A stretch of 62,994 nucleotides of DNA, filler included, from Reclinomonas americana ATCC 50394 (GCA_048213135.1; 11 parts of 11 records of this genome joined end to end with filler, not necessarily neighbours in it); one strand, 5' to 3'. Shown: positions 1 through 62,000, counted from the first letter of the whole stretch. Numbers and translations are program-made. Notes: generated from the sequence alone by a model not told the origin.

Positions 1-2606
1 AGGATGACAGGTAGCAGCTGTAATCACACACCTTCCTGACAGCATTGTTCTGCCAATCTCCAACGTATACCACCTTGTTGGAGGAGTCAACAACAATGCC
101 ATGTGGTTTGTTAAATCTCGCACTCGACCCGGTGCCATTTGCAGTGCCCGAGGATCCATTACCAGCCAGAGTTGACACAGAGCCGGAGGCGGTACTCACA
201 CGGATTGAGTAGTTGTTCAGCTGCAAGCGTGGGGTGTAAGCTCCCTCCCTGAACATGCAATCGGATGACACAACAAACGCAACATCAGCAATGTACAAGT
301 ACCCGGTGATCTGATCAATCGACAGGTCGGTGGGCTGGTTGAACCGAGCAGCAGAGCCGACTCCGTCTGCAAAGTTCCACACAGGCGCAGTACCCAGAAA
401 TGTCGACGTCACACCGGCACTCGTCACTCGTCGAATTGTGTGATTATACGTGTCGCAAATAAATGCAGTGCCGGTCGCATCCAAATCAATGCACTGCCCA
501 AGTGAGATACACATCATGAGCCGCGCAGTGACAGAATGCGTGCACACGTGCAGTGACACACGAACCGTCGATTGGTTGAAACGAGCAGCTGCGCCCGTGC
601 CGTCTGTTGTTCCAGTCATGCCCGCCGTGCCCGCCCACGTCGTCACTGCCGGCGTCACACCAAACGCAGCCGTCGTCGGCGCCCATTCAAATGAGTTGGT
701 CATTGTCGAAGCCGCCACAGAATTGCCCACCAGTGCATTTAGTGTCGCTGACGACGTTGTCACGCTGCTGGCCGCCAGCGTGGCAAGTGATTGGGTGGCT
801 GTGACACACCAATGAGAAAGGAAGAACAAGGCAATAGAAGGAGAGGGGGAGGGGGAGGGGGAGGTAGAGGGAAGAGGAATGAGTGAAGAAGGAAGACAGA
901 GATGGAGAAAGATAGGGAGAGTGAGTTAGAGGGATAGGAAGAAACGGGGAGAACAAGATCGAGGAGAAAGTGAGACGAGGAAATGAAGTAAAACAGAAAT
1001 AAGACGAGCATGACAAGAAATGAAGAGCAAGAAACGAAGATAATGAAGAAAGAAAATGACAGACACAGAGCACACAAGACCATGCAGCACCACGGCGCCT
1101 CACCTGTGGCGATGGTAAACGCCTTGTCGAAGAACAGCGGCGGCGATCCATTGTCCGTCGACCGAATTGTCACCGCCAGCGGGCTGCCCGCCTGTCCCGC
1201 CGCCACAATCACCAACGACTGTCCGCTGATCGAGAACACTCCGCTGTTGGCGCCGCCGACAATCGAGTACGTGAACGACTGTCCCGCATTCGCGTCTGTC
1301 GTCTGCAGCGCACACACGACTTGATTCGCCACCGACGGCGACACATACGTCATCGACGAGCAGCTAATGTCGGTCGGCGCCACATTGGCGGTGGTGGTGA
1401 AGGACACGGTGGCGCCGTTGATGGTGCTGGGTGTGGAGGTGACACCGACGGCGCGGAAGTAGTAGGTCCAGTTGCTCACCAATCCAGTCAATGAGGCGGT
1501 AATGGAAGTGGCGAGGGAGCCAGTGGAGGTGGCGGGGGTGGCCGACACCGATTGCGACGCCAGCGACAGGCGACGGATGGTGTAATTCCTGTAATCAGCG
1601 ACCACCAACGAAGCCGTCGATGCATCGAAGACTAAAAAGTATGGATTGTAGAAGCGTGCTACGGTCGACGCGCTGCCATCAGCGGCGCCAGTGACACCCG
1701 CCGCGCCTGCGACGGTGCTCACTGACGAGTCTGATAGTCGGAGTTGCCGCACGGTGCTATTGTTGGACTGCGCGGAAAAGTCAGTGGCGAGCAGCGAAAC
1801 GAGTCTCTGGATGGAGTGGGTGGAGATCCTCAACATCGGCAACATAGATTACGTTGCTTGCAGTGTCGTACGTCAGGCCAATCGGCGCGTTGAAGCGGGC
1901 AGCCGTTCCTGGTTGCACATCGATCAGCACAAATGCAGACGTTCACATTGGATCCTTGCACGATGATAAACTCACCAGTGGCATCAGTAGATCCGGACGC
2001 GCCGCTCGCTGAACCCGCCACCGTCGTCACCGTCATCGCCACCGTGTCAATGACTCGGATGGAGTTGTTACTGAAATCGACTGCACTCAAGCACAACAGA
2101 ATGCACAGATGAGAATGTATCTCGGTGCTAATGTCTTTCGCACACAGCACTACTCACCGACGTACAACTTGGTTCCGACGAGAAGCACACCGTTGGGACC
2201 ACCGAATCGCGCCGCTCCCGCACACGCTCCATCGGCAGTGCCACTCATGCCCGTAGAGCCACAAAACGTCGTCGCCGCACCGGCATAGGTCACTCGCCGA
2301 ACCGTGTTGTTGAGCCAATCGCCCACATACACCACCTGATTCGTGGCATCCACCGCCACGCCCATTGGCCAATTGAATGAGGCGGCTGCACCCGTGCCAT
2401 TGGCACTCCCCGACGCTCCGTTGCCTGCCAACGTGGTGACCACGGCCGCTGAAGTGATGGCACGTATGGCGTTATTTTTCATCTGCGCAAGACGCACAGA
2501 GAGTCAGAGTCACCAGAATCACGCAGCGATCATGCGTGCCAACACACACTCACATCGGCGACATACATGGTTCCCGTGGTTTGGTCAAAGGTGAGATCGG
2601 ACAGGC

Positions 2607-2697
<91 letters not shown>

Positions 2698-6290: not shown

Positions 6291-7686
6291 TAATCCACAA
6301 AGTGAGAAAGATGTGACTTGGAAAAAAGGCACGGAGATGGGTGAAAGAGACAGAACAAGGAGAGAATGTGAAGGAAGTGAAGAAAAACGCTCTGCAATCA
6401 CCCTTGGTCCCCTACTCACCGCCGACTCCTCCGCATAGTCCCCTTCGCCGGCGGTCAGTGACAATTTAACCGTCGGCAGTGGTGATGCCGCATCGCGACC
6501 CGCTGTCGCAGTCATTGCAGCAAAACCGCCAGCCAGAGGCGTCTTGGTGAGAATGGTCACTGCTGCTCCATCGGCAGGTGCCGCCGGTGCCGCCACCATG
6601 CTCGTCAGCGCATGAGTGAATCGCGCGGCAATCGACTGCGCGTGCCCGTCAATGACGGCCGCCTGCGGGAATTCAGACACGATGCGCAGCACGCCACTGG
6701 CGGTGCGCAAGTGCGGCAGGTCAAGAGTGATGGGACGGTAGGTGCCCGGGCGCAGCACAATGGTCGTCGGTAGAACCGGCCAGGCCAAAACATCCTGCAC
6801 ACATTTTCTTGAGTATCACAAGACTCTCTTCAACGTTCTCGCACGCGCGGTGGACCAACCCTCAACCGCAAGATCGGAGCCGAATCGTCGACCAGCACCG
6901 GATCGGCACCGTTCGGCACGTCGGGGAACACGTGGATAATATCGTGTGGATCGACTGGCCGACCGACTGCGGCCTTGGCCGAGGGCACACGACGCGCCAG
7001 CATCTCCGTGGCCAGATCGTCCATCAGGTACACCGGCACCTCTTCGAGATTCATGTCGATCTCAACTCCGAGCTGCTTCAACGCCAGAATCATGGATCGG
7101 AAGCGCTCTAAGACAGGCACAAGAGTGTCAGCGACAGGGGAAGCACAAATGATGAGAGCCATGGCGACGCAACGAGGCTGGCTGGACATGCAACCACGCC
7201 ACAAATCGGTAAAGTCGCGATGCGAGACGGTAGCATGCGAGGCCAATGCCCATGAGCAGAACTCGTCCTTTAGCACACTGAGCCGCGGCATGACCTCGAC
7301 CTTGGCCTGTGCCAAGAAGATGAGCAACAAAGCGTTGTCACCCTTTCTCCCTTCCCTGCTGATCTCCGCACCTGATACTCGGTGGCATACAGCAGGAACG
7401 CACTGGTGATGTTCTGTCGCTCCAAATCGCGCAGCGCCTGTCGCAGCGAGTGCGTACACTCGTCACGATCACCAACGGGGCTCACCGGGAGCACCGTGCT
7501 CGGCGACCGCGTCTTGAACATGGTGCGATCCTCCTCCGGAGCCACATCGCTGACGGCGCCAAAGCAGCGCTCCAGTGCCGCAGTGCTCTCCACGTCCATG
7601 ATGGCATTGTGGGTCGGCGATGCCGAGCGAGCACTCAGGGGGCGCGCAAGCAGCGGCACACCGGAATCCTGTCGAGCGAGGAACAT
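6291..7686 (-). CDS. Hypothetical multi-exon protein, with a motif resembling the N-terminal cap of a right-handed beta-helix
   Basis: Coding-like GC-rich segments flanked by GT/AG. TTIVLRPGTYRPITL...LRIVSEFPQAAVIDG at about 6650-6775. Exon structure and ends unresolved. Confidence 0.45.
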
Positions 7687-8357: not shown

Positions 8358-11300
8358 CCAACCCACCTGCTGCCACCACTGGCGACAACTCCGCATCACA
8401 CGCGTCCACCATGTCGAACTCATCGTGCACCACCGTCCCGTCGTTGTTGTTGGCGTTTCCAGCCAGGGGCGAGCGCACGGCATGCGGATCCAGACCGGCC
8501 GCAGCCGCCGGATCGTCCACCATGAGATTCGGGGCCACGGCAAAGAAGCGCCCAGGCATACCCACTGCACCACCCGACGGCTTCATCGGCACGGGGTCCG
8601 AACCACCCAAATCGAATGCCGAGGTGGTCGGCTGTGGCATGTACGGTCCGCTGACTTGCAGCGTGCGACCTCGACGCCGAGGCGTGAAAGAAAGACCTTC
8701 TTCAATCGGGCGTGCACCCGGGCGCAAGCCCTGATACCCGCCAGGTCCGAGCGACCACACCTCGCCCTTGTGGATCTCCTCCGGCATGAGGCTCGGTCGA
8801 CGCAGAACCTCCACTTGCATATCGTCGCCCCATGGACGAACGGCCTGTGCGGAATGCAGACGCGAGTGAGTGATGACAGACCCGCTCACTCTTTCTCTCA
8901 CACTCTCACAACTCACCATGTCAAATCCACCCATCCCAGCCCCAGCCTCCGCCACCACAACTGCCGTCGCATTCACACTCGCGACCGTCGGCAGTTGCTC
9001 CAGATTGACCATGACGCTGGCGCGGCGACCGACCATCGGTAGCGGCTATAAGACAGTCAAGATAAGAACCAGTGCCTTTCTTTCTTTCGCCCTCCGACAA
9101 AAACATCACGTACCGCGCCATCAGCAAATATCGAATCACGTCTCATGTGTGCGGCGTTGATGTGAGACGGCCTGCGTCCTGTGAGAGCGGCCACACTGGC
9201 GCGGCGAAGCACCTCGGCGTGCACCGACTCGCGACGCAGCCGCACGGTTGTGTTCCCGTCGGCGTCCACCTCCTCCACATGCATGCGGCTCATGGTGCGG
9301 TGTAAGTCCATAATGGCTCGCGCTGTCTCTCGACCCTCCTTGTGACGTGCCGTGCGCTCAAACTTGCTGCCGGCACCCTCCGCATACAATTCCACAATCA
9401 GGTGCTCCAGCTTTGTGTGGTCGCCCTTTTCGAACACTGTGTCTTCCAGTGGTGAGCGTGGCGTGCGAGAGAACGGTTGGCTGGCCAACAACACGATTGG
9501 TGCCATCATCATGCCTGCGTAAGGGAGTGAGAAGATGAACACACAGGGGAGTGCGTTTGCTGAACGTCACTGACCCGACAACCACCCAATCCACATGTCT
9601 TGCAGCGCGGCGGTCAGTACAGATGCATCAGCTTGCTGCGCGAACACGCAGTTGAGGTAGATGGCACACATGGTGGCCAGCCAGAGAACCTGCGGGAGAT
9701 AAAATAGTCAACAAGAAGCACTTTCCATTCTCTTCTGAAGGTGACAAATTGTCATCTAATGCTCGTCTGCTTTTCCTTTTCTTCCCATCATCCCTGCACC
9801 TCTGTTGTCATTCTTTCCTCATCTCATTTCCACACTTTGCGTTTTCTCTGCGCCACTTTCTTGTTGTTTTATCTACACTGTGCTTCACGTGTCATCTCGC
9901 TTTCTCATTCTTTACTATGTGTGTCGCCGCTCCATCCTCTGTTCTCGTATTCTCTGCATCTCGCTTCTTGTCCCACCTCCATCGCTCTGCACCTCAACCC
10001 CAGGTTCTTCTTTGCCGTCCTCACCTCATTTCTCCACTCTTTCTTTCAACCTCTCTCTCTCCCTCTCTCGTCTCCTTTTCTTCTTCTTGAAACCTTTCCC
10101 CCTTCCCCCTTTCTCTCTTCTTTTCTCTTTCTCTCTCTTTTCACTTCCCCCTTCCCCCTTTTCCCCCTTCGCCCTCACCCCCTCTGCCCTTTCCTCCCTT
10201 CCCCCTTCGCCCTTCCCCCTTCACGCCCTTACCGTCAGCTTCTGGGTGCGCCTGAAATTGCTGGTGGGCATGCCGGTGACGGTGGAGAGCCACGAGTGCT
10301 CGTGACGCAAGCGCTCCGAGGCCTTGGAGGCCAGTTTCACGGCTGCATTGCGCGCCCGCAGCATCACAATAACTTTCTTGACACACTCTGCGCAAAAATA
10401 ATGTCGTGAGCTGGAAACGAACGCATCTCCTTCCCTGCTACCCAACGCACCTCGAAGACGGGCCATGGCTCGCAAGTGTCGCCGCAGAGCCTCACGATCG
10501 TCAATCTCTTCCTCGTCCTCGTCTTCCGCATCGACCTCCTGCTCAGCATCGTCCGCACCATCGGCATCATCCACATCCGACACGCCCGCTGCGCGAAGCT
10601 TCGTCGCCACTGCTCGCCGCTCGACGTCGTCCGACGGCAGCGGAAGGCGAGGAACGCGTTGTACAACACCTGCGAGCAGGGGAAAAGTGATGAATAAGGG
10701 ACAGCAAAGCAGAGATGGAGACAGCATCTTGAACCACGCGCGCAACTTGGTCGCACGCCACTGCCTGCACCCTCTCGATCGAGGTCTGCAAATGCCGCAA
10801 GTTAAGTGAACAGAGTATCCTTGGCCATTCTCGTCATGCAATGCGCACCATTCTCCACGTCGTCATCATCATAGTTGCGCGAGCACAACTCCAACACATC
10901 GGCCGCTCGATCGTCAGTGTCACCCACCGACGACTCCGACGACGAAGCCGAAGAGGAAGAATGCACGTCGCCATCGCCGGCCGCCGCCGCCGTCGCCGCC
11001 GCCGCTGACTTGCCGGCAGGAACCAAACTTGTCCGCGAACCCGACAGAGCAATGGACGAGTTTTCATCGCACGAGTTAATCGAGGAGTGTGCCGATCGAG
11101 TGGCCTTGGTGCGACGAGCGTTCACGAGGCGAGCAGAAGAACTCGACGGTCGTGGCTTGCCATTCTTGCCGCTGGCGTCGGCTGCGGCCGTCACATCGGT
11201 CGGCAGAGGTGCCGAGTCCGTCGGAGCCAGCATGTTCGACAGGCGCGTCACCATCGGCTCCGCTTCGGCGCCCAGGGTGCGACGACGGAAGGCAACTGCT

Positions 11301-14300
11301 GCCACCATGCGACGAGGTGCATCAGTAGGCGGAGTCGGCACCGATGCTCCACTGTCGGTCCTCTGCGTCGTGGCCGACGGCTGCTTGTCTGCGGCAGCCG
11401 TAGATGCAGCACTCATCCGCTTATCCATTCTGTGACACGAAGTTAAAAAAAGTGTGAGCTGCATGCAAGGGGAAAGCTACGCCGCACTCAATGCAGTGCT
11501 GCTACTGTTGCCTGCCTCACTAAATGACGATTCTATATTGCCTCCCTCGTTGTCTGCAACACTGTTTCTCACTTCTTGTTCCAACTCTCTTGGTTCTACA
11601 ATTGTTTCGCGTCGATGTCTCGTCATTCTGTTCTTCGTCACTCATCTCATTCTCCTCGTGGTCGCAATCACGCTATCTCGCTGCTTCAAGCCATCTCTCT
11701 GTAATCTACCTGCTTTGCCGTGGTTCCCTCTTCCTCCTCCTATCCTAACTTTTTCCTTCTGTTCTCTCTTTCACCTTGTGCTCTGTCTTACTCTTCCTGT
11801 TCTCTCCTTCTTTCCTTTCCTCTGGCCTTCCCCTTTCTCCCTTTCCCTCCATCCTTTTCCTTCTCCCTCTTCTTCCTCTTCTCCCCCTCCCCTTCCCCTT
11901 CCCCTTCCTCCCCTTCCCCTTCCCCTTCCCCTTCCCCTTCCCCTTCCCCTTCCCCTTCCCCTTCCCCTTCCCCTACCACTTCCACTTCTCCTTCCCCCTT
12001 GTCCCCTTCTCCACCCTCACCTCAGGAAGTTCCCGGGCATCCCCCTCCCCTTGGCCGATCGTACCCTCGGTCCGGCACCTGTACCATCCTCTGCCACACC
12101 GTGCTCCTGCTGACTCGCTTTGAAGGCCGCCAGCGCCTCGCGGATGCTAAACATGCCGCGGAATTTCGGTAGCCGACGCAGGTGGCCAGTCTTGGGCACA
12201 AAGAACGCCAGCGGCTTCTTCTCGGACTCAGACCCCGTGGCAGAGCTCGACGATGATAGCTCATCGGGATGCTCGCCAACCTCCGGTTCATCCTTGAGTT
12301 GTTTTTGCTGCTGCTGCTGCTGCTGCATGAGCTCGGATGCCTTGAGCATGCGCTCGGCCAGCAGTTTCATCGCCTGCCGACGAAGTAGTCGTTTGTCGCG
12401 CACTCCATCATGCCAGTAGAGAATCGCCCAGCACAAAATGTACACCACATGCACGGCTGAAAACGTGCACGCACAATATAAAGTCAGACACACGCAGCTA
12501 GTGATGAAATCGTGGCAGAACGCTCACCCATGGTGTAGAAGAATGTGCGCGTGCCAATCACTTCAGCGAGCAGGCCAATGTTTGCGGGACTGTGAATCGA
12601 TAAAAGAGCGTCAGTAAAGTAGATGTGTGCACAGAGACGACTTGAGCAACACAAGCCACGCACTTGACAAAGAGGAACTGGACGGTGAAAATGGCTTCGA
12701 CGTCGATACTGAAATCGGTGAGATGATTGCAGCGACACAGCGCTGAAATGACTTGACGTGGCGGAGCGATCTGTCGGCGGTTTTTGAGTGCGATTAAAGG
12801 AAAAACATTGAGAACATAGATTGTGATTGCTCACGAAACCTTCAGAATGGTCTGACAGCCGGTGGAGTTCCACGCATTGTTTGTCGTGTCCCAGTACTTG
12901 CATAGGGAGATGGTCGAAGGGTTGACCACTGTATGGAATCGACTAATGAGAACTACGAGTGAACTGAGTGCTCAACACTCCCACACATTGAGTACCTGGC
13001 CGCGTGGCGTTGGAGGGGAAGCTTGAGTTCATCATCGCCATCGACCCCGTGTCGGCACGCGAGCTAAACATTGAAGCAACGGGTGGCGCGTGGTGTCGCT
13101 CCACAGCCGCACCAATGGCCATCGACTCGACCGTGTAAAACACAGACTTGTCGCCGTCATTGTCCACAAGAGAGTGTGTGAAATACGCCTCGCTGTCAAA
13201 CGACCGCGTGCTGTTGGCCGTGATATTCGGCTTCCGGCACATGTCGTCCATGACGACAAACATGGTCTCCGTGAACACTGGCGGGCCACGCGGACCCTTC
13301 ACGCGATCGCCGCAATTGTGCGAGTACTCCAGCAGTAGATCCTGCGCAGCGGAAGTGGGGGGAGAGTGAGAATCTGAAGCGAAAGCACCAGTGAAAGAGG
13401 GGAAGTTGGTGGTAAAGGGGAGGAGATGGAGATGGTGGAATGGATGACCGCGATCTGTCTCTCTTTCTCTCCCTCTTGGGAATCAGGACCCAAGACATCT
13501 TTGCCCAATCTCTCCTCCCCCCAACGCACCCAGTTCACGCCCGTGAAATTCGCCAACGTCTGCTGAGCAATCTCAAACAGGATTGGCTCCGGCTGTCGCG
13601 ACACCGGCAGCTCGATACCGCCACTGAACAGAGTGAGCGATTGCACTGGTGACGCGAGGTTGGTGGTGGCCGACTGATTCTTGATGGCCGGATTGATGCC
13701 CTGCTTGTAGCGCATGCTGGTGTACGAAATGGCCTGGTCGCCTGTGCTGGTGGCCCACGACGCAGGCACAACAAATTTGGTATCTGCCGACGAGTCCGTC
13801 GTATTGAATGCAGTAATGTTGGCCGAGCCGGCAGCAAACTGTCGGGGGTTTCGGTCAGAGCGATTGCGGCGACGAGCACACGCGCGAGAAAGCAACGCAC
13901 CGACAAGGTCGGCGTCTGTGCCGTCGGCGAAAAGTACGAGGCGTAGGCCTGCAGACTGTCTCCATCATACTGGAACGCATGCTCTTGCGGTGCCTGCGCA
14001 GAATCACATGTGAGCAAACCGAGAAATGAAAAAGGAGAGACAGCGCTTCACAAGGAACATGCTTGCTGCCACTTCTCCTTCCCTCGCGTCCACACATTCA
14101 ACCGCATTAGTTTCATCATTGTTTCTGTGCGTTCTCGCGCATCACCCCCTCTCTTCATCTCATTCTGCATTGTCACTTCATTAATCGCTGTGGCCGATTC
14201 TCTTCCGAATCGCCTCCCTCTGTTACTTCACCTTGTCGCCTCAATCCATCTATTATTCCTCATCTCTCTGCGCTCATACGTTTCATTCGTCTCGAAATGC

Positions 14301-40042: not shown

Positions 40043-40949
40043 TCACTGAATGTCGACGCGGCGCGTGTCGACGCCGCGCGTTGTCTCCAGCTTGGGAATG
40101 TCGACCTGCATCACCAAAAGAGTACGTTTTTGAGTGTGCGGATAAGCGGCTGCAGTCTTTCTCCATCGCACCCACCTTCAGCACGCCATTGTCGAATCTC
40201 GCCGTCACCTCGTCCGTGTTCGCGTTCTCCGGCAGGCGGAACGAGCGGAGGAAACTGTACGTGCGCCCATTAGCAGGAGAGGATGGTGAATTAGAATACG
40301 AGGTGGCGGGGACGCAACGTTCCCCACGAGCGCTCCACTCGGTGCCACTGCTCCGTGTCGTCGCGTCGCTCCTTGCGAGTCTCGCCGGTGATGGTCAGCA
40401 CGTCGTTGTCCACCTCGACCTGCACAGCCACCCGTGTGAGTCAAGCTAACCACTGATCACACGCCGATCGAACTGAGCGAACTGACCTTGATCTGATCGC
40501 GGTCGACGCCGGGGATCTCGGCCTCAATGTGCAGATTCTGGCTCGTCTCGCTCAGATCGCAGCGCGGGTGCCACTTGGTGAGTCCGAGGCCACCAACGCC
40601 ACCAAAACCGGTGCGCGACAGCTGTCCTTGCTGCTGTTGGCCCTGCACGCCCTGTACGCCCTGCACGTCGATCTTGCCGACGCCAGAGGTGCCCTCGTTG
40701 ACGCCCGTGCCGCCGACCGTGCCCTGCACGCCTTGCGTGCCCGTGGTGCCCATGATCGACGGCTGATTGAAACCCACGCCGCGGGAGCCCCACGCATTCA
40801 TGGCCAGCAGCTGATCCATCTCACGCTGCATGCGGGCCAGCTCCTACTCACGTGCGAAAGGTCAGAAAACGAAACAGGAACCCGTTTCCACATAACGCAA
40901 ACTTAACACACGCACGCACCTGATACGGGTCCAAGGTGAAGAAGCTCAT
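40043..40949 (-). CDS. HSP20: Small heat-shock protein (Hsp20/alpha-crystallin domain), 5 exons
   Basis: MSFFTLDPYQ|ELARMQREMDQL...WHPRCDLSET..LHIEAEIPGVDRDQIK|VEVDNDVLTITGE..WHRVERSWGT|FLRSFRLPENANTDEVTARFDNGVLK|VDIPK...VDIQ-stop. Confidence 0.96.
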
Positions 40950-47300: not shown

Positions 47301-50206
47301 GTAAGCTAGCGACGGCCGGCAGACAGGAGAGGCTCTCGTGCCACGCTCACCTTGTGACAAAAAGTACTCGGTGCTGAGGTCGTCGGTGGACCCAAATCCC
47401 CCAGCATGCATGCTCTCCAGCATGCCCTGCAGCTGCGCACTCGAAAAGGTGGCATATGGGGCCAGCAACTTGCGTGCCGTGGTCGATGCCGACAGGACAG
47501 GATCGTCGTAGGCTGCGAGATGAAGACACACATTCGCGTTGAGAGTCGACGACGGTACGTAGCACACCGTGCAAGCACGCAACGGTGACTGGTTTCCGTC
47601 TCGCACATGTGCAACATGTCGGCCACACGCTCCATGCCATGCTTCTGCAGCAACGCCAGCAGTGTCATGTCACCGACTGCCGTGCCGAGATCGCTGACGA
47701 GATTTACATACACGTGTCAGTGCCGATTCGCACTCACAATGCCACTGGAACCGCAACACTCACCGGTCGCTGGCATCCACCGACATTGCCGCCGACGACG
47801 CACCACGGCCGCCGACAGCAGACTCGCACAATACTCGGCGCATTCGTGGCGACGCTGCCAGGATCGAGTGGAGCGCGAGGTCGGCTGCTCCCGTGAACGG
47901 ATCAATCACTGCATTACACGGTGTCAATGCATGTGACGGTAGGCGTTCAGCAGCGAGATGCAACCTTCACTGGCGACCGGTGCGTACAGCAGAGTACCAA
48001 TGGCCGCCATGAAGTTGCCGTCCACCAACAGCGACGTAAGTGTGACTTGACCGCGACTCTGCTCGGCAAACATGAATGTGTGTGGGAGAAAGAGAGGGAG
48101 AGAGAGAGGAATTGTGGCAGGTAAGCTTACCGAAAACACGGCCTCGGCATTGGCCTTGGCCAGTGCAAACTCGTCTCCTTGTGCCACCGCCAATACCACC
48201 GAAATCCACGGAGCGTCCGCATCACCAAGCGAAGCCGCCTGCTCCAAGATTAAGAACAGAGCGCGTCAGCAGTCAGCAGTCGGGTGGACAACTGACAGAC
48301 GATGCACCGGCTGTGAATGCTCACCGTATACACACGCTCCAATTGGTACGCTCGGACGTAGTGGTAGAAGCACAGGGGAGCCGCTCGCTTCGCACAGAAA
48401 CGCAAAAAGTAGTCGTGGAACTCAGAGGCAGCGCCGACCGGGACCACACGATGCAGGCGCTCCACGCTCTGTTGGCCGACACGAATTGCGTATGGTGCGA
48501 ACTGCACAGCGCCGGCAAGTCCACCGTACAATGCACGCTGCGGCTCAGCACCTGCCACACGCACGGTGTCAGCCGAGTAAGAAGACAAATATCAATGAGC
48601 GCACAGTCCGACTGGTCAACACAACTCGAGTCCGCAGGAGCAGCAGCAGTAGCGATGCGCTCCAGCTCTGCGGTTGCCATGGCCAACTCGCCGTCGCCAC
48701 GCAGCGGGAAGAGCACATGCGCACGCGCAAGGCGGGTGCGCAGTCGATCGTAATCGTCACGTTCCGCGGGCACGAAGAACCCAAGTTGCGCCAGACAGCT
48801 GAGGAACACCTCGCGAATGTATGGCTATAGAGCGGATGAGGGCGCACGCCGAGATGCAAACTCAAACACACACACGCGCATTCGTACCGTAATGTATTCT
48901 TTGGCGGCTTCAGTGGCGGCAAATTGCACAACTTGCTCCTCGTCCACCATCTCCAACTCCGACAGGCACTGCAGCGAGTGCAGAAGCGATTTTTCGTTCT
49001 GCCTCTCGAGACAGTACCGCATGTGCAACATTACATCCTCCACGGTCTGCATCACACTCTCAGCAGTGAAAAATGGGACAACCAGGAATAGAGGGCGCGC
49101 CACTTTCGAATACCGTCAGCGTCGGAGCCTTGACGCGATCAAACACCACTCGGAGGCGCGTTTCACGCGACCATGTTGCCAGCATGTCCAGCGAGAATGC
49201 CATGTAGTGCCGACTCTGTACCTCAAAGTCGTCATCCAACTCCTCGTCCCCTTCTCCGCCTTGCACCTGCGTCGCACATTGGGTTCAACAAAGAGCGACA
49301 CGATTCGACACAGCAGGCCACGTGATTGGCGCACCAGTGTGGCGTCGTCCGCCACCGTCATGATGGCTCCGTGATCGTCGACATCGCCGCATGGTACCGA
49401 AGTAGAAAAGTTGGCGAGACGCGCACGAGTTGCAGTGCCCTCCCTAGTCTCCGCCATCACTGTGCGATACGACGCGCAGAAGGCCGAGGACGGGTACAGT
49501 TCCTCCAACTGGCGTGCATAAGCTGCGTGGTCGTTGTGGTGGGAGGCGGTGAGATGAGGGGGAAAAAGAGGGAAGAAGGCCACCCACTCACCAATTAACT
49601 CGAGCTCCTCCGCCGTGAACATGGATCGCGGCAGATACTCAATGACACTACTGCGCAGCATGCGATCCACTGTGGTGAACGCAATCTCCTTCAGCACCAC
49701 AGGCGGATCCTCGCCCATGCGATGCAGATAGAGGCAGGCAGTGTCCATCTGCACTCGAGAGAGAGTCAGTTTGATGAACTTTCCCCAACACCGACAACAC
49801 AGATCTCGTGCGCGCACCTCTCCGAGCTCCAGCTGGAGGTACACGATGCGCAGGGCATGCAACTGGAATTCCTGCACGAAGCTGGCATACGCAGCTAGAA
49901 ATGCAACAGCGGTCGAACGGTGAGCACAGCTCTTGTCATACCAACTCTGCGCTGGCTGCACGCATATGCTTGCGTACTCACCAGGTGTGCGCGCCTCTGC
50001 ATCGTCTGACGAGTTGGCAAACTGGCGGAAGTGCAGGTAGGCAACGGCGCTCGACACGAGGCCCTTGGAGAGCGCCGATGAGACCACTTCCTCCAGTTCC
50101 ATTCGCGACCACTGCTGGAAGAGATTGCCGGAGAATGCAGACTCGATGCGCTGCACCATTTGCGGGGTTCCTTGTGCGCACGTGCAGTCAGCAGCCGACC
50201 GTTGTC

Positions 50207-50248: not shown

Positions 50249-52268
50249 AACAAACAAACAAGCACGCCACGACTCACCACGCTGATGGATGCGAGACAGG
50301 CTGCTGCTGTCAGCCTCGTTTGTGGGCGACATCAGATCGCGCACGGCCACACGCAGCCCGCTGCCGCTTCCGCTGCCACTCCCAGTGCGGTCATCGGTAC
50401 CCACAGACGAATGCTGCGAGTCGACATCAGAGTGGCCTCCACCGACCTGCGCTCGCATCGAGTTGAGCAGACACAAAACAAGGAGGAAATCCGAATAACA
50501 TGCACACTCACCGAGCCATCAGAAGACTCATTTACGGCATCGCCGGCCTCAGGGCGGCGACGAGTGCCACGTCGACCATTCAGACGCTTGCGGAACTTGG
50601 CGCACATCTCGGTAATGGCAGCCAGGCGAGCTTGTAGGGCTTGTCGGCGCGCCTCGCCATCACTTGCCGACTGCGCGAATAAAACACGCATTGAGCAACT
50701 GGCAGTCACGCACTCTTTTTCCGAGTGGTACGCACCGCTGAATCGGCGAGCAAGGCACTGAGCTCCAGGCTCACATCCTCAATCACCTTGGCGGCATGAC
50801 GCAAGGCTGCGCACATACACGCACGAAAAATTCAGATGACCATACGAGAAAATGATTAAAAAGGGTTCAGCGAGTCACACCGGTGAAGAGGAGGCTGAAG
50901 AAAAAGTCGGATTCCTCGGTTGATGGCATAAACTCCGCCACATGCTTGTGCACAGCCAGGAGTGCGTCGGCCAGCTGCGGTCGAGGAATGGCATCGAGCG
51001 TCTTCCGCACCACGTCAATCTCACGATTCCTGCACACACCAAACCCCACTCCATGAGTACATCACCTCTCCTCAATCGAACACCGGCGCTCACCTGAGGC
51101 CCAGTGTCAGCGCATGGACGTGAATCGAGCCTTGCTCCCAAGCGTTGAGCTCAGAGAGACGCTCGGCCGCCAGACTGCCCTCGAAAATGATCAAGTTGTT
51201 CACCAGCTGCTGCGGTGCTTGTTGCACGACACACGTGAAGAGTCCCTCCTCGTTCACGTAGTATAGTCCATTGCGATCGAACGGCACCACCAGCGTCTTG
51301 CGCACACCCGGCGCCACCGGCAGCACTCGAACCTGCGCGGCGTGTGTGTGTGAGTGAAACTGAGAACTGCCTATCCGCCAACAACACGCTGTGCACGCAA
51401 CGTCCCCGCTCGCGGCGACATTGAGGCAGCCGAACTCTTCGGCCGCCGCAGCCACCAATAGCGACGGGAGCAAGACGACACGCGGCGACAGCGACGCCAC
51501 CAGTGCACCTCGTTGTACGTGCAACGACCACGGGGTGACCAGTGCAAACTGAGCGCGTAATGTGTGAGGCACACGCATTCGCGAGGAAATTGAGACAATC
51601 ATGACTGCGTACCGAAGACGACTGCACTTTGTGCGGATCACGCATCCAGTACGACGCGGCACGCACTGCGCTGGCGTGCGCTCCTCGTGACGGCGCAATG
51701 CTGGCCCGTCCAACCAGCGCGGAAATACGCCGCTCGGCCGGTGCTCCGCCCGCCGACTTGATGGATGCGGTCAGCTCCGAACGCGGAGTCACCATATGCA
51801 GCCAGCGTTCCACCGGTTCCGAGACAGTGTGTCGTCGACGCTGCATCACTGCACGACGTGAAGCCAAAGAACATGCAGTGTGGTCAGCGAGTGCGCACTG
51901 AACAGTGATGCCCGCCACATCCACGCAACGACTGTGGCCGTCCTCCAACAGCGCACTGCGCGTGTCTTGCACCGCACGCAACACCGCCAGCGTCTCTGGG
52001 CGACTGTCGGCATCGCTCTCATCCCGCGACTCATCGCCGTCATCATCGTCGCCGTCGTCGTCCTCCTCATCGTCGCCATCCTCCTCATCTCCGTCCCCAT
52101 CGTCATCGTCGCCGTCGTGCGCACCTGCCCGGGTTGGCACGAAGGGTCAGCAAATCGCACAGGGAAGTGTGCTTCTATACAGAGAGAGAGAGATGTCCCA
52201 CCAGCTCCTGCCGCAGCAGAAGAACCAGAGCCGCCCGCCCCACCAGCAGATGCTCCTCCGCTTCCGCG

Positions 52269-53098: not shown

Positions 53099-56000
53099 AC
53101 GCAGGGCGTGAGGAAGAATAGAAAGCAAGGCGCGTCAATAACCACACACACACACACGCACCTCTGCCAGGATTTCCATCTTGCGCTCCAGCGTCGGCAA
53201 CCACCTCTGCATGAGATGCACATTCTGCAGCAGCACCCAGCCACCGTCACGAGCGCATCGATCCATGGCCTGCGCCGGTGTGTGAGATTCATGCAACAAT
53301 GACTGATTCGTCTCACGCAAACGCAACAGCATTGGCGATATCCTCTTGACCTTGTCCCATGGACACATTGACGAACTTGCGGTTCTCCTCCATGAAGCCC
53401 ATCTTGCGACCGAGCGCCTCAATATCCTTGACAGGATCGGCACCAGGGAACAAGATGAAGAAGAGCGGCGTGCCGGGACCACTCTCAAAGAAGGTGGCCT
53501 CGAGTGAGAACGGCACCTATGCGTTTGTGTGATGATGATGAGCTGACACGCACACACAACAAAGGAGGAAACATTACAACGAACCTGTTCGGCAAATTCA
53601 TCGCCGAGGTTCTCCGCCGCGAACAAGCGAGTGGCCGCTGTGACACGGTCGGGCCGCAGCGCACGCAAAATCAACAGTCGTTGGAATGATGCGGCATTCT
53701 TCCACTCGCCCGGCATCTTCTCGATTTCGGGTTGATCGGACTCGGCCCACTCCTTCCAGCGCTTGGCAGCACCCTCAATGTCGTCTGGCAACTTGGCGAA
53801 TGCTTCCAATTGCTGTTGGATTTTCCCCCCACGGCCGACAACCATTTAGCACGTGTATGCAAGACAAACCACGTCAAGATGCGTCACACAAATAAATCAA
53901 ACCTTCAGGGCCTGCAGGCCGAACCAACCAGTGTCGGGCAGCCACTCTTGCAGTGGATTCGCCGACCCGGTATCGATCTTGCTGCCACGAGTGAGGTACT
54001 CCAGCTCGTCGACGCGGATCCTTCTCTCTTGCACCAGGATGAGGAAGCAGAGTTGCGCGGTGAAGATGAGCTTGTGCTTCTCGAAGAGACCACGGCGGGC
54101 GTAGTTGAACACCGAGAAGGTGATGGACTTGAGCAGGTTGAGCATGCGCTCCTTGAGCACGTCGTGCGGCGTGGCTTGGTCGATAGCACGCGAGAAGACC
54201 ACTTCGAAGGCGCCGAGTGAGAACTGGTACATGCTCTCGATGCGGTTGAGCGAGTCGAGCAGGAAGTACAGCAGCGAGCCACGAGCAGCCACAGGTCTAC
54301 GTGCACAGAACACCGCGTGGTGGTGAGTCAACAATACGCAGGAGAACGAAGGAGCACCTCATTCGTGACGCACCGGTACTCTTCACGAGCGCGATTAATG
54401 TTGACCTCGGTGACCTTGGCGATTTCGACCTTTTCGGCAATATCGAGTGCCGTGACCTTCGTCTGCTCCAAATTCTCAATGAGCTCCACGTCTTCGAGAA
54501 TGTCGCCCTCGGCGTTCGACAGCCTGCGCGCGTCGAGTGTCATGAGTGAGCGGAAAGAAAGATGGAGTTTGACAAAAGAGGGGAACGAGGCACGCACTTG
54601 TTGAGCACGTTCTCCTCGAGCTGCTTGAGGCGAATCTTGAACTCGTTCTGCTGCTCAATGAGCGCCGCCTTTTGCTGCTCGAGATCCGGACGCTCCTTGC
54701 GCACGACAAGCGCCAGCAGCTGCTCCTCCAGACCGCTTTCCGTGACCATGAAGTTGATGATGGTGCACTCGGCTTGCAGCTCGGGCTGGTAATGCGGATT
54801 GCTGAGCTTGGTGTGCAGGAACAGGCGGAACTTCTTGTGGTAGTAGACTTCCTTCTCGCCCAGCGTCACATAATTGTCGTGACCACGCTTGACCGTGCGA
54901 CGGCCGACCACTGGCGCCAGAATGGCGTCGACAGTCTCGCCAATGTTCTCAATCAGCACCGGGTCGCCATTCTCAATGGCACGCTCCAGCACGTCCAACA
55001 TGGTCTTCTGACCGAGACGGATGACCTGCGCAGAGAGAAATCCACATCGTCAGTCTCAGTCTGCAACTACACCCGATACGAGTGGCGACATCACCTTCAA
55101 GTTGTTGCGCTCCTCGCGTGTCTTGATCCACGTGATGCCCTGCAGCTGCGGATCAATGATCAGCGGCCAGCGGAGGCAATTGGTCATGATGGTGCCGTTC
55201 TCGGTGGAGACACGATCGGCGGGCAGTTTCTGCGCGATGCACACATAACACATACGTCAACACAAAAACACAGCACATCCCACGCGCTCTTGTACGCTCA
55301 CTCACGCACCTCATTGCTCCACCCGGCAATGGTGGCGTCGTCGACAAGCATGGCGATCGGGTCCTTGTTCTCACCCATGGGGATTTGCAACTCGTCGAGC
55401 TTCGGCACCCAGCGCTCTTGCACGAGGAACTTGCGCAGACGCATGTTGAACGGACCAATGTACGACAGGAAGGCGGCGGACAGCAACACGTCGCCGACGA
55501 GCAGGTTGAGCCGGAGGCGCAGGGCATTCACGCCCTCCTTCCAGCGCACCTTCTCAGAGGCGAGAGCGCGCACCAAACGCTGCGCGAGGTTCAATTTCTG
55601 CACAGGCACCAACCAGTCAGTCTTGATTACTCCAACTCGTTGTCGAGAAGAGAGATGCATACCCTGCTCGTGGCCTCGGCCTCCATGACGACACGAATCT
55701 TCTCATTGTTGGCCTCCTCGAACTGGGCACGCAGGTGGGCCAGCTTCTCCTCGAGGGCACGCAGCTTGCGACGCAGAGCGTCCATCTTTGCGTTGGCCTC
55801 TTCGAGACGGCGACTGGCCTCGGCCAAGGCAACACGCTTCGGCTCGACTTCGCAGTGAATGCGGTAGTAGCCACAGATGTTGATGACCCACTCGCAAATA
55901 CCTGGGCGACATACACACACACACAGACGTGTAAGAGCGTAAGCACACGAGGCACACAAACGCACATGCACAGTGGGGAAAAAAGTAAAGAGACGCACCG

Positions 56001-59000
56001 GCAGCGGCAGCCGACTTGCTCTTGATGACCTCGCCAGTGAAACCCGGGTCCTGCAAGTACGGGTCCAGCACCTTCAGATGCGTCTCGGGGATGAAGGTCT
56101 TGTCGAAGGTCTGCAACAGACGCAAGAAGGCGTCGACGTTGCCCATGAACTTTTGCGCGGCTCCCCAGCTGCGATCCTTCATGACAGCCTTCGGTGGCGA
56201 CAGCAACACCAGCACAGCCGCCATGACACCCTTGACCTCGGCAGGCGGGTTGTTGAAGGCCTTCATTTCGGACAGGTTGTTCTTGTTCAGCGTGTTCAGC
56301 GCAGCCTCGGCAGCACGCACTGTAGATGTGTTAGCAATCATCTCTTTCCGTATGTGCAACCAAAATGAAGTGCAGCTCACCAGCGGGCTCGGCGCGCTTC
56401 AGCTCCTCATCGGCTTCCGCTTGCACTTGTCCGACTTCGCGCTGAATGGCCTCGGCCTTGCGTGCCTCCTCCTGGGCACTGTTCGCGACACACACACGGA
56501 TGAGCACACACGCGCATCAAGTAGCCACCACCNNNNNNNNNNNNNNNNNNNNNNNNNNNNNNNNNNNNNNNNNNNNTTAATTAATTAANNNNNNNNNNNN
56601 NNNNNNNNNNNNNNNNNNNNNNNNNNNNNNNNACTGCGCGAGGGGAAAAGGGGAATACACACATTCAGCACGCGGCAAGCGCAGCTGTTTTGCAGCAGGT
56701 GATGGGGCGACAAAACCTCAAAAGATCCTTGTTGAGCATGTACAGCGTGATGAACTTCTTGGCCAGACGACGGGCGTCGAGGAAGCCTTCGGCCATTAGC
56801 ATATTTTCGCAAATCAGCTCCAGATCGGGGACGACGACCTATCCGCGCACACACGCCATTCCGTCAGCCACACACCAAACTGATAAAGCGCAGCCAGCAC
56901 AACGCAACAGTCACAGGACGGAAGAGTGCCTTCAGCGACTCGGGCAACTCGGTACGACCAAGGTAACCGGGGTTCATGGTGATGAACGCGCCGACCGTGG
57001 AATCGAGAGCCACCTCCTCACCAGGGAACTGGAAGGTGGTGCGGCCTTCACGAATGGCATCGAGAATGGACTTGAACTGGGTGGACACGACAGACAGCAC
57101 CTGTGCGAAAAGAAACAAACACAGTGTCAGTGCAAGGGGAAGAAGTGATACTGCTGGAGGCGATTGCAACGCAACTTCGACGGAGATGCGGTTGAACTCA
57201 TCGAAGCAGCCCCACGAGCCGGACGAGGCCAGACCCTTGAAGATATCGCCGAGCGAGCGGTAGTCCATTTGATCGGAGCAGTTGAAGACGTACACAGGCT
57301 TGCCGAGCTGACTGGCCAGATCCTTGGTGGTCTCCGTCTTGCCGGTACCGGCGGGGCCGGCGGGCGCACCGCCCATGATCAAGTGGAGACTCTGCGTCAA
57401 CGTAATGTCTGCGAGAGGAGGAGTCAACAAGCAAGTGGCAGAAGGCAGCAGCCGCAGCAACACAACACGCAACAGATACGATCTGTCAGAGGCGTAATGA
57501 CGAGACGCGGGCCGTTGCCGAGGTACTCGTAGCCGTACACAAAGTGCGCATCGCAAATGTTGATGTGGCAGTGACCGTCCTTGTCGTCCCAGCGGTTGCG
57601 CAGCTGACTCTGCCAGCCAAAGGCCTGCGCACTCTCGACCTTGTCGCGGATAATGTTTTGAATCACATCACGCGAGTGCACATCGATGGTGACGAGAGAC
57701 ATGATCTTCTGACGATCGCCCCTTGACAGTTCGCCTTGGACCATCTGCAAGGGAGAGATAGAAGTTGAGGACAACAACAACAACAACAACTGCCGTGAGG
57801 ATAACAAAGGGTGACGCAACGCGAATAATGTTGTTCAGCTGCTCGATCTGCTTCTTGTTGTAGTCCTTGAGGGCGTTCTCGTTGCCTTCGTCAATGGCCT
57901 CGTAGGCCATGACCACTTCGGTGGCCCAGTAAATCTGCGACACGACCAGCACGACCTGAGCGGGGAACTTGAACAGCCACTCCTCGCGCTGCGTCTCCTC
58001 GTAGGCCACCACAGCGTCGGCGATCTTGGCACGCACAGCCTCTTGCATGGTGTACGTCAGCTTGTTGAGCCAGTTCTCGACCTGGCCCTGGCACACCATG
58101 GACTCGGCGAACTCGACAAACTCGCCCTCCTTTGAGTACATGCCAGTGGCCGTCTTGGACTTGTTGCCCTGCGCGTCCTCCTCGAAGTGCAGCGTGGCCA
58201 TGGCCTGGTACAGCTTGGGGATCTGCTTCATGACGGCGTGCGGCGACTGGCCGCCGACAGAGAGCACGTCGAGCAAATCGGGCACACTCATAAAGTAGAA
58301 GCGCGGATATGCTGCAGCACAAGAGCCGGTCAGTACTCTCGCTATCACAGTGAAACATCATCACGCCACTCACTCACCCTTCTTCTTCGTCTCCAGGTAC
58401 TCGTCGAGACGCTTCTCGCACTTGCTGAGGCCGACCTTGAGCTCGCTGAGCTTGTCCTCGAGACCAGGCTTGACGCAGGCCTCGATCACATGCGGCGTCT
58501 GTGAAATGCACACGCACGTGAGATCACGGATGGCAAGGTGATAGGAACACTACGCTAGACACACGCACCTTTTCAACGTCGTACAGCAACACCTTGAGGT
58601 CTTCATCGATACCATCGAAGCGGTGAGACTCCTCCGGCAGCTGCGCACGGATATCCTCGGAGCCAATAAAGATGTTTTCCAGGTAGGCCCACGTGCGTTG
58701 CACGTCGAGGAACACGTTGAGCACAGTGTCGACAGTGCCGAGCTTCTTGATCCACGCCTCCACTTCTTCGGCAAAGATGCCGATGAACTTGGACGTGCTC
58801 ATTGCCTGCACCACCATCTGATCCTGCTCGAGCGTCTCGACCACTTCTTCCGTCACCTGTGGTTAACGCGTGCAAGTCAGCGACTGCGGAAGCACACAGG
58901 GCAGAGCACAAGCAGCGACGCACCTTGATGAGCGGAATGTCCGTGTCCTTGTGCTTCGTGTACTCCAGGTGCATGTCCTTCCAGTGAGCGTCCAGCTCCT

Positions 59001-62000
59001 TCAGCGACTTCTCCATCGAGTTCTCCTTGTTCGACTGCTCCACAATCGTCTCCACGTCGGCGACAAAACTGCGCAACAATACAAAGAGAAAATATTCAGC
59101 CTCATTCTCCTTTGCACGCGAGACAGACGCGCCCGCCCCCCCGCTCGGACTTGACAGAGAAAAGAACAAAAGAATCTCGGACGCTGCTAGTGGCGGCGAG
59201 CGAGTGAGGCTTGCCGCACCGTCGCCAAAACATTGCGTCCTTCAAAAGTCACCGCCACCACCACCACGATCCCACAAATACACAACACGGCAGGCGACTC
59301 ACCGATGCAGCTCGAGCTTCATGAGATCCTGCAGACGGAAGTCCTTGGAGAGCGTGAACTGCACGCCCGTGGTCGTCATGAGTGCGTTCCAGTGACGCGG
59401 ACGCATGGCGGGGCTGCGAAGCAGTGTGATCAGCGGCAGCGACACTTGGAAGTTGCGGACCGAGTCCTCGAGGCCGACAAAGACGTTCCAGGAGCGCACG
59501 CGCTTGTCCAGCTGGCGAATTTCCTTGGTCAGCTTCTTGCTCTCCGAGTCAATATAGTCGGTGTTGACATCCAGGAAAGGAATCTTCTCCCAGTCGCCCA
59601 GCTGGTACTGCACGAGGCCGACCACATCCCATACCTGCTTGAGCAGGCGGAGATCCGAGCGGCACTCCTGTGAAGTTGAAGCAAAAAATCAGAAATAGAA
59701 GAGAGAAAGTAACGAATGTGGCGTCGACGCAACTGTCAGCGGGTACGCGTTGTACGGCATGAGCTCGAACAGATCCTGCTTCTCGAGGAGCACCTTGTGC
59801 TCGCCCTCCAGCGACTTCACTTCGACGTTGAGCACGTCGAGAGCGCGGTACGCCTCCTCCGGCGGCGTCTCATAATTCATCGGAGCGCGCGCCAAGAATG
59901 TCTGGCGGTACTTGTCGAGCTGTGTGCGCAGAGGCGAAGAGCAGTGAGAGCCCGGGCGCACGAGAAGAGGAGCGATGCCAGACACACAAACCTTCTTGCT
60001 GAACTCATCCTCCAAGCGCTGAATCAGAGCCATCTGCTGGCTCTGCAGCGGCGACAGAGTCTCCTTGGCCTGGAACACCAGCTTGGCCAGCTGACCCCAC
60101 TTTTCGGGGGCGGCGTCGAGGTCCTGCAGCGTCTGGTCGCTCACAGTGCGACCAAACTTGCGCAGCAGCACCGTGGTCTGCTTCAGCGGCTCGAACATGC
60201 CCTCGGTGCTCTGCTGGCGCTTGCGGTAGTGCGACAAGTGCTGCATGGCCGCCACGAGTGCGTGGTAGTCACCTGCACACAAACAAGCACACACAAGACA
60301 ATGAGACGGACAATCAATGAAGGGGAAAGAATGACTGATGTAAACGGACCGCCTTCCACGGGATTGCGCAATCCAGCCGTGGTGTCTCGGCAGAACTGGT
60401 CGAGAGAGCGCAGCTTCTCCGCCACGTCCTTCTCGAGGTGCTCCAGGAACATGTAGCGCCAGTGCTGGGCCTCAACCGACAGCGCCTCACGCGCTGGTGT
60501 CAAGTCGACCGACACCCAGCCGTACGAGACATTGCGCGGGAGCGCCTTGACCTCCTCGATCACGGCGCCGTAGCGCATAATCGCCTGATCAAAGTCATCC
60601 AGTACCGGGGCTACATACGCACAAACACACACACAAACACAACCGTCAGCCGCCAAGATGGAAACCGGTGCTGTGTATCGCAGAGACGCAACGCTCGTAC
60701 TGCGGTGGTCCCTCGATCTCCTCGGTGCCCGGCTTGATGCGGCCAGTGATTTCACCAGAGAGGAACCGCTGCAGATACTGCTCGCGATCTCGCTTGTACA
60801 AGTTGTCAAACTTGGAGAAGCGCGCGCGGAACTCCTCGCACTTGACCACGGTCTCGTCGAGCAGCTCCAGCACTTCCTTGCGCTGGCGCGTCAGAGACTC
60901 GTCGGCGGCAATCTCCTCCACGTAGTCTGCGAAAAACACACGTGAGACACTCGATAAGTCAACCTCTCGCTCCTTGCGCTCCACTCACCCTCACGCGGGT
61001 TGTCCAGGCGGTTGACAAAGGCGGCCAGCTTGTACGCCGTGTCGACCCAGCCGGTGACGCGGTCTTGCAGTGAGCCAGGGCCACCGCGGATGGACGGCGA
61101 GTACCGCATGTCGTTGCCGAGGAGTTGGAGGGTGAGAGAGGTGAGTGGGCGAGCCTTGCGCTTGGCCAGCTCAGCCTCGCTCTTGCGCACGACCACCATG
61201 TTCTTGATGAGGAAGTCGAGCGCCGAGTTGATGGCGGCGTGCACGCCGATCGACACAATCTGGTTGACGTAGTCGACGTATGCGCGCCAATGCTCGCTGG
61301 AGCGGCTCGCCTCGAGCTTCTGGCACGACATGGACATGAGCTTGTGAATCTTGTGGCCCTGGTCAACTGCGGAAGGGTCAGCACCGGGTGACAGCATACA
61401 CGAAAAAAAGAAAGCAGCACAAACCAATGTCGTTGGTGTCGGTGATTTCCGGCGTGCTCTTTTGGCGCCAGCGCGAGAACACTTGCTGGGAGAGCGGAAT
61501 GCTCGACGATGCAGCACCGCTGTCGTCCTCCTCGGCGCGTGCCGGGCGCCAGAATGTCACCACACCGACCAAACGACCCTGCAGCAGACCAACACTGTCA
61601 GCTCGCCAACATTACTTTACAAATCTCGGTGAATGTCCCGCACACGCACCTTGCCGCCGGTCTGAGCCGCACCCTCGGTTGATGCCGCAGCATCGCTGCG
61701 AGAGTCACCCGAGCGAGTGATGACCTTGGTGAGATCGAGCCAGCCCGTGAGAATCTTCTCAATGCTCTTGACGTTGCCCTTGATGAAGTTGAGGCGGCCG
61801 TACAGATCCTTCACGACGTCACGCGACTGCTCAATGAACGGCAGGATGCCTTCGTCGTGCCACGTCAGGCGCACAATGCCGTCCTCCATCACACGGTTGA
61901 TGGAATCCAGGCGCTGTTGCACCAGCGGGCGCTCCACCTCCAGCATCGTGCGCATAATGGTGTTGTACTGCACGTGAAGGGAGAGGAGATTAGGGGAAGC

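Follow-up and report, generated by a model that had tools for sequence, protein, structure and literature searches.

Shifted 5′ splice sites in the window

The window, i.e. the whole stretch of DNA analysed here, comprises 62,994 nucleotides (filler included) from eleven records of the genome of Reclinomonas americana ATCC 50394 (GCA_048213135.1), joined end to end. Among others it harbours an axonemal dynein heavy chain gene, an Hsp20 gene and a repeat gene which we take to be NHL-like, and in all three genes introns start, or are predicted to start, with GTTGCGT, a 5′ splice site (donor) with one additional T after the initial GT. The genome encodes two kinds of U1 small nuclear RNA (snRNA), and the 5′ arm of one of them, here called the variant U1, pairs with these donors one base out of the usual register. 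Taking all readings that use the variant U1 together, it is, judged from the pairing, very likely the RNA that reads this donor class.

The word GTTGCGT occurs 28 times in the window, 25 times on the minus and three times on the plus strand, while Markov models of order 1-4 predict 11.5-15.6 occurrences. A class-aware gene model, which was trained on the class, predicts 23 of the 28 words to be donors, none of them following a G. With the class-aware donor score the shifted class as a whole accounts for 37 of the 172 window introns, two of which follow a G. A sequence-only reading of the window had listed thirteen GTTGCGT donors, seen as ACGCAAC on the plus strand; all of them are present, each preceded by A, C or T, and ten further ones are predicted. 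Its statement that most donors are GTGCGT, GTGAGT or GTTCGT has to be given up, as the three together make up 58 of the 172 window donors and GTTCGT only six.

Conserved residues were said to fix the cleavage at the GT, and protein homology supports this for seven of the thirteen sites. Three of them lie in the dynein gene on the minus strand, where the exons joined are contiguous in homologs to the residue: site 53321 (intron 53270..53327, T|GTTGCGT; DNAH9 3944|3945), site 56902 (56839..56908, T|GTTGCGT; PDB 6zyw_A 1527|1528) and site 57169 (57101..57175, A|GTTGCGT, within ISVE|VLSVV; DNAH17 1908|1909). At three more dynein sites on this strand the GTTGCGT cut reached the top score among all splices tried against dynein homologs, namely 57467 (57409..57473, T|GTTGCGT, DRIY ITL; 277 compared to 273 for a GC donor and 267 for the next GT), 57814 (57745..57820, C|GTTGCGT; 198 compared to 181 for the next GT) and 59727 (59668..59733, A|GTTGCGT; 100 compared to 99 for a non-GT donor), with margins over non-GT alternatives that are small (1-4 points). 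The seventh site, 40312, belongs to the Hsp20 gene (40255..40318, minus strand, C|GTTGCGT). Here the Pfam HSP20 profile is contiguous across the junction: residues 1-31 of the 33 in the upstream exon match profile positions 25-53, the downstream exon matches from position 57, and a codon is split between the two. Site 60686 (60611..60692, minus strand, C|GTTGCGT) belongs to a predicted, frame-consistent dynein intron whose cut the homology comparison did not fix. Sites 277, 22494, 38729, 42976 and 47577 are supported by reading frame and gene model; the predicted introns, all on the minus strand, are 221..283 (T|GTTGCGT, in the repeat gene), 22408..22500 (A|GTTGCGT), 38672..38735 (A|GTTGCGT), 42906..42982 (C|GTTGCGT) and 47513..47583 (C|GTTGCGT). 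Elsewhere in the genome, two of the three GTTGCGT junctions of CCT7 are fixed by homology (820 versus 746 and 513 versus 469), while the third sits in the variable tail of the protein and is not. The homology-fixed class junctions have GT...AG ends.

Size of the class in the genome

The frequency of the class was determined with a donor-blind gene model, in which all GTs count equally as possible donors and which was seeded on dynein exons and accepts GT-AG introns only. The sample consisted of 809 kb in 131 sequences (the window and other stretches), with the loci of contigs C1 and C2 excluded; these contigs (L180-L192, L228-L235) are of megabase size, lower in GC and bacterial-looking. Introns had to have flanking exons of at least 40 bases, a coding length of at least 450 and no N. 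1635 introns passed these filters, and 1433 were left after removal of 202 duplicates. The assembly carries both alleles of many loci. In 519 of the 1433 there is no second in-frame GT within 21 bases, and these are referred to as the unambiguous set. The 80 of its 519 donors that fit no class are put down to gene-model errors.

GTTGCG starts 102 of the 519 unambiguous introns, compared to 5.6 expected from an independent position-weight matrix. The comparison with a general donor matrix had been proposed by the sequence-only reading, and so had the test of the last exonic base, which is G before 7 of the 102 GTTGCG donors versus 60 of 79 GTGCG and 67 of 79 GTGAG donors. Both come out in favour of a separate class. 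The shifted class is used by 117 of the 202 exons ending in A, C or T versus 13 of the 317 ending in G (p 4e-45). In the full set G is found at -1 in 19 of 247 class introns. Therefore the description "never preceded by exonic G" applies to the thirteen listed sites, whereas in the genome "rarely" is the correct word. The GTTGCG class is real and large and comprises about one intron in five; extrapolation from the 247 class introns in 809 kb gives a genome-wide number in the order of ten thousand.

Both donor classes occur in 71 of the 86 genes with at least six introns, without significant clustering (p 0.16), and the contigs bearing either U1 gene also carry both classes. Therefore the two classes do not stem from a mixture of two species. 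When alleles are compared, 2 of 15 pairs of class introns and 9 of 32 pairs of canonical introns have a changed donor with no switch of class, in a sample that is too small for conclusions.

Two U1 genes

An Rfam search, scoring like all our Rfam searches the best 40-50 candidates only, revealed U1 (RF00003) at three places of the genome, on contigs C343, C429 and C479. The U1 on C343 has the canonical arm AUACUUACCUG. The other two contigs, which are about 95-97% alike and represent two alleles, encode a U1 with the arm AUACGUAACUU. This variant arm differs from the canonical one by U5G, C8A and G11U, so that the canonical ACUUAC is missing and C8 is lost, and it is the reverse complement of AA|GUUACGUAU. 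Because helix H begins at base 12 in both U1 genes, the arm was changed by substitution and not by insertion. A third type of U1 was not found in the genome by the Rfam search, by DNA searches or with a stem-loop 4 word, and a U1 pattern that ignores the arm has three matches in the genome (the three known loci) and none in controls.

The variant U1 aligns over its full length to Rfam model positions 1-166 and keeps the cloverleaf as well as the motifs of loop I, loop II, the Sm site and stem-loop 4 (GAUCAAGCAG, CAAUGCAC, AAUUUUUU). It scores 64 bits (E 6e-14), its canonical paralog 63.7. The RNA is identical between the two alleles although the flanks differ. Upstream, at -66, lies the word CCCACAA, a motif which was picked after inspection of the loci and which occurs at -62 to -72 in seven of nine unmasked snRNA loci, against a background of about 0.002 per 30 bases. 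Besides the variant U1 these are U2a, U4, U11, both U6 loci (in one as CCCATAA) and U6atac; U2b and U12 do not have it in exact form there, and the upstream region of the canonical U1 is masked. By eye, the 3′ flank of the variant U1 resembles those of the canonical U1 and U12. By these features the variant gene looks functional, and we infer that its RNA is made and takes part in splicing.

The canonical U1 (L003:1501-1673, minus strand) has the loop I sequence GUUCA, compared to GAUCA in the variant and in the Rfam consensus, and a longer stem-loop 2; the gene is located at a distance of 12 bases from a masked stretch. One U1-70K gene was found, in two alleles. U1C was not found in the genome search, where its domain is probably split by introns.

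Pairing of the two arms with donors

A variant U1 had been one of the proposals of the sequence-only reading; the gene exists, and its arm pairs with GUUGCGU in a +1-shifted register. According to the computed pairing C9 of the variant arm lies opposite the intron G+1, in agreement with the idea that G+1 stands in for the exonic G-1. For GTTGCG donors the mean pairing energy is -9.3 kcal/mol with the variant and -1.3 kcal/mol with the canonical arm, and the variant arm pairs better in 102 of 102 cases. It is also favoured for 16 of 17 GTTTCG donors. The canonical arm is favoured for all 79 GTGAG donors, and GTGCG donors pair with both about equally. Among the 495 possible two-change arms, U5G plus C8A is the joint best for the class; the actual three-change arm ranks 23 of 4455. 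On the basis of these pairings each of the two U1 RNAs appears to serve its own share of the introns.

Intron anatomy and tolerance of donor bases

Apart from the donor the class introns look like the others. Comparing 176 class with 266 canonical introns, the median lengths are 67 and 66, and a CTSAY-like branch word is present in 136 and 212, respectively, 20 and 19 bases from the 3′ end. The acceptors of the class also match those of canonical introns. Thus, the class introns have U2-type branch points and acceptors. The U12-type branch word CCTTRAC occurs in one of the 176 class introns, and the donors differ from the U12-type 5′ site RTATCCTT by the G at +6. U12-type introns avoid phase 0; the phases 0/1/2 of the class are 44/40/35. 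The interiors are equally dissimilar within both classes (mean 12.5 for the class and 12.4 for canonical introns, 4000 random pairs each, from 219 and 338 introns).

The class does not have the G at +5 which in major introns is the partner of U1 C4 and of the U6 C; it has C at +5 and G at +6. In the unambiguous introns the ratio of GTTGAG to GTTGCG is 9:102 compared to 79:79 for GTGAG to GTGCG (p 7e-14). C+5 is more strongly fixed than C+4 of canonical donors, with 8 of 81 versus 57 of 96 one-mismatch neighbours (p 4e-12). After +3, G+6 is the least tolerant base in the full set (8 mismatches versus 23 at +5, p 0.011) and mirrors canonical G+5, and +7 varies as canonical +6 does. The tolerance profile of GTTGCGT thus mirrors that of G|GTGCGT displaced by one base. 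Furthermore, U+7 is found in 91 of 127 donors after purines versus 105 of 120 after pyrimidines (p 0.003), and this compensation between exon and intron fits arm base U10 facing -1.

Other spliceosomal RNAs

U6 is present in three copies, all with the canonical ACAGAGA box. A variant U6, which had been suggested as an alternative to a variant U1, therefore did not emerge: the Rfam search and two exact 12-base words, taken from separate regions of U6, return the same three canonical-box copies. At L061 and L068 there is a 19-base match to the 3′ part of U6, which shows none of the remaining features of U6, runs antisense to a likely intron and is probably due to chance. For U4 one type was found. 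U2 has two divergent paralogs (L020:1501-1699; L021/L022:1501-1717), both with the standard branch-binding GUAGUA. Neither U5 nor U4atac was found in the searches of the genome, whose assembly is fragmented and has masked stretches.

This genome also has minor spliceosome RNAs and ATATCCTT minor introns. For U6atac only one type was found, with the box ACCGA (L172/L173); a search for a canonical-box U6atac gave two matches, both purine-rich chance matches. U11 (L178/L179) has the canonical arm AAAAAGG, and U12 (L176/L177) is weak, with 26 bits at a cut-off of 53. A 10-base complement between U2b and the 5′ end of U6atac (shuffle p 0.0012) was rejected as a signal, because U6 and U12 share an equally long one (2 of 36 pairs). 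Of 87 matches to a donor-plus-branch pattern, 14 start with ATATCCTT (eight loci after allele pairing) and none with GTATCC; all 14 begin with AT, and one AT-AC intron was followed in full (L208). Across the genome, branch points of the U12 type show no enrichment (130 versus 288 control matches). A CCT7 exon shares 78% identity with Seculamonas ecuadoriensis and no more than 72% with any other named hit, and in a tree of 32 sequences chosen among the 120 hits listed, few of them from named excavates, the spliced protein clusters with Seculamonas (support 99/91); this points to a probable jakobid. Minor introns were reported neither for the Discoba sampled in PMC10639083 nor for Excavata in PMC11347168.

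Two U1 snRNAs and the alternatives

As judged from the sequences, two U1 snRNAs probably share out the major-type introns of R. americana, with the ordinary U6 acting in a shifted register. The canonical U1 would read G|GTRAG-like donors, aided by the exonic G, and the variant U1 would read H|GTTGCGT (H being A, C or T) one base out of register. The pairs would be C9-G+1, A8-U+2, A7-U+3, a wobble of arm base U6 with G+4, G5-C+5, C4-G+6 and A3-U+7, with U10 opposite the last exon base. As this duplex would lie wholly within the intron, no exonic G would be needed, and exons ending in A, C or T would mostly use the shifted class. U2 would then recognise a branch point of the usual kind. The U6 box, itself unchanged, would pair with G+6 and U+7 rather than with G+5 and U+6, so that an additional base would be looped out ahead of the cut. 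That U6 reads the donor one base out is suggested by the tolerance pattern of the donors. In major introns a C of the U6 box pairs with G+5, which sets the cut five bases upstream (PMC11162779).

Several observations speak against this proposal. In the same paper the cut always lies five bases upstream of the G+5 pair, with one -1 exception reported, and a +1 register of U6 has no demonstrated precedent in the literature covered. When the unambiguous introns are taken by themselves, the low tolerance of G+6 falls short of significance (2 mismatches versus 8 at +5, p 0.11). A is nearly absent at +4 (0 of 89, whereas canonical donors have A+3 in 7 of 58; p 0.001); since A+4 would be the Watson-Crick partner of arm base U6, this is not predicted by a model with two U1 RNAs. 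Likewise the G at -1 is depleted (19 of 247 versus about 80 expected) despite a possible wobble with U10. With 64 and 63.7 bits the two U1 genes stay under the Rfam cut-off of 69.5 bits, and the donor-blind model misplaced one dynein class donor, choosing at 57467 a GT six bases upstream.

Two alternatives keep the variant U1. Rather unlikely, in our opinion, is a hybrid and thus third spliceosome, in which the variant U1 and U2 would select the intron and a U4atac/U6atac.U5 particle would catalyse. No looped-out base would be needed here, because the CCGA box of U6atac can pair in its normal, unshifted register with C+5, G+6 and the U+4 of GTTTCG. C+5 is a hallmark of minor introns, and at +4 T is the only common substitute and A is absent. 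The only U6atac type found has an ACCGA box, which at +6 and +7 does not match the ATATCCTT minor introns of this same genome, and the helix I strand of this U6atac is able to pair with each of the two U2 RNAs. However, the U12 of the genome also pairs with this U6atac, G, which at +7 would be the partner of U6atac C13, is seen there least often of all bases (3 of 102), mismatches are tolerated less at +6 than at +5, and U4atac was not found in the genome searches. The CCGA box is the "CC variant" known from cnidarians, Acanthamoeba, Physarum, Physcomitrella and oomycetes (PMC2396436) and is therefore no sign of co-evolution with the GTTGCG class, an idea that we dropped. For this reason, and because G+7 is rare, the hybrid is kept as a rival. 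In the other alternative, a second paralog of U6 (or of U5 or Prp8) would set the longer distance to the cut. That two types of U1 and of U2 exist, that the assembly is fragmented and partly masked and that U5 escaped the searches would leave room for it; we nevertheless consider it distinctly unlikely, with three U6 searches returning the same three canonical copies, one U4 type and a single U1-70K gene in two alleles.

The remaining alternatives do not use the variant U1. The canonical U1 could read the class in the shifted or bulged register established in humans (PMC4856993), as the sequence-only reading had also considered, with the variant U1 being a pseudogene or incidental; of the human variant U1 genes most show hardly any expression and few sustain splicing (PMC10870369), and the GTTGAG donors (9 of 519) could be read in this way. 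However, such a register predicts A at +5, where C outnumbers A by 102 to 9, it would yield only -1.3 kcal/mol on GTTGCG, and the variant gene has a promoter word, intact stems and identical alleles. We therefore regard this reading as very unlikely. Even more remote is the case that the junctions are mis-called, with a GC cut three bases later, or that the introns are of another kind, either U12 introns that were transformed like those of Physarum or members of an introner family. Minor snRNAs are indeed present, and at 57467 the GC donor three bases on scores 273 compared to 277. Mis-calling is contradicted by the residue-exact contiguity at 57169, 56902 and 53321 and by the two CCT7 junctions, a U12 origin by the single CCTTRAC, the phase distribution and the canonical U11 arm, and an introner family by class interiors that are no more alike than canonical ones.

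If the two U1 snRNAs do share out the introns, nature would here provide an example in which each donor class of the major spliceosome has a U1 paralog to itself, with the normally invariant C8 lost and the register shifted at about a fifth of the introns. Two questions become testable: whether U1 variants own separate sets of introns, and by what measure the cut is placed if the conserved G lies at +6 while U6 stays the same. Annotation of this genome by standard gene finders will be faulty as well. The hybrid, if true, would provide the unexplained CC variant of U6atac (PMC2396436) with a matching substrate and would break the rule against mixing major and minor catalytic RNAs.

Further introns of the class in the window

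The ten GTTGCGT donors added to the thirteen are all predicted. On the minus strand they start the introns 7108..7173 (C|GTTGCGT), 14801..14864 (A|GTTGCGT), 15886..15952 (T|GTTGCGT), 16083..16161 (A|GTTGCGT), 16262..16331 (T|GTTGCGT), 30762..30824 (T|GTTGCGT), 39209..39273 (T|GTTGCGT), 51333..51401 (C|GTTGCGT) and 51849..51929 (C|GTTGCGT), and on the plus strand the intron 36626..36682 (T|GTTGCGT). Related donors had been noted at about 12838, 27593, 37710 and 41715, and all four are predicted as well: G|GTTTCGT in 12771..12839 (minus; the one at 12838, preceded by G), A|GTTTCGT in 27593..27673 and 37710..37782 (both plus) and A|GTTGCGG in 41631..41715 (minus). In addition there are predicted introns with A|GTTGCGC (10670..10746, minus), C|GTTGCGC (34318..34386, plus), T|GTTGCGA (36781..36849, plus), A|GTTGCGG (44540..44604, minus), G|GTTGCGA, a class member preceded by G (38990..39056, minus), and T|GTTGAGG, a member of the shifted class with A at +5 (1768..1834, minus).

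In the repeat gene, three of the repeats carry a predicted intron at the same codon, each with a different donor type, namely GTTGCGT (221..283), GTTGAGG (donor 1834) and GTGAGT (donor 2553). The assembly gaps, e.g. window 2703-2802 and 56533-56632, contain an TTAATTAATTAA spacer within runs of N, and the dynein gene has lost long coding stretches at two assembly gaps. A 166-base intergenic stretch (window 32613-32772) is 90% identical to contig C343:1577-1742 and possibly represents a short repeat element; by eye, words resembling it are also seen near window 3430 and 24790.

Comparison with known systems

Shifted (+1) and bulged registers of U1 at human atypical 5′ splice sites were reportedly described by Roca and Krainer in 2009. 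As in those sites, the donors of R. americana correspond to the consensus with one base inserted after the GT, and U1 pairs one base downstream (PMC4856993, PMC11162779). However, in humans it is the canonical U1 that does so, and about 1.5% of the sites are read in any non-canonical register (PMC11162779), whereas here about 20% of the introns are concerned and a dedicated U1, as we read it, has removed the mismatch by its C8A change.

U1 arms altered to complement an atypical donor are known from Entamoeba (AACAAAC with GUUUGU donors) and Mastigamoeba balamuthi (ACGUAC with GUGCGC donors; both bioRxiv 10.1101/2022.06.08.495308), the latter sharing G at arm position 5 with the variant U1. In both organisms there are single U1 candidates which pair in the normal register and retain C8 and G+5. 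In R. americana, by contrast, the variant stands beside a canonical U1, has lost C8 and would read a shifted class. Two U1 arm types in one genome have also been described for Physarum polycephalum (ACAUAC; bioRxiv 10.1101/2022.06.08.495308) and for the diplonemid S. specki (C-rich arm; PMC12621601). However, the Physarum U1 is changed at the partner of +4 and pairs in the normal register, and in S. specki both arms pair with the consensus comparably, with no separate donor class tied to the variant in that paper. Further literature for comparison is found in PMC8329584, PMC10158995, PMC1201135 and PMC2834692.

In the open literature searched we found no report of a C8-lacking U1 paralog matching a large shifted donor class; similar U1 or U6atac sequences may be listed in the supplementary material to PMC2396436 or to the preprint by Roy and Bowser. 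With regard to relatives, a metagenome pattern scan for a U1 with the C8A arm gave 57 stretches, none of them U1-like, and the 18 of these that were scanned with Rfam contained no U1.

A parallel in organization is the minor spliceosome, including the expanded system of Physarum: there, too, a separate RNA recognises the 5′ ends of a second intron class, in genes shared with the first class and with C at +5 (bioRxiv 10.1101/2020.10.12.336362). In contrast to it, the second RNA of R. americana is derived from U1 and the 3′ ends of the introns are U2-type, and an ordinary minor system with U11, U12 and ATATCCTT introns exists alongside.

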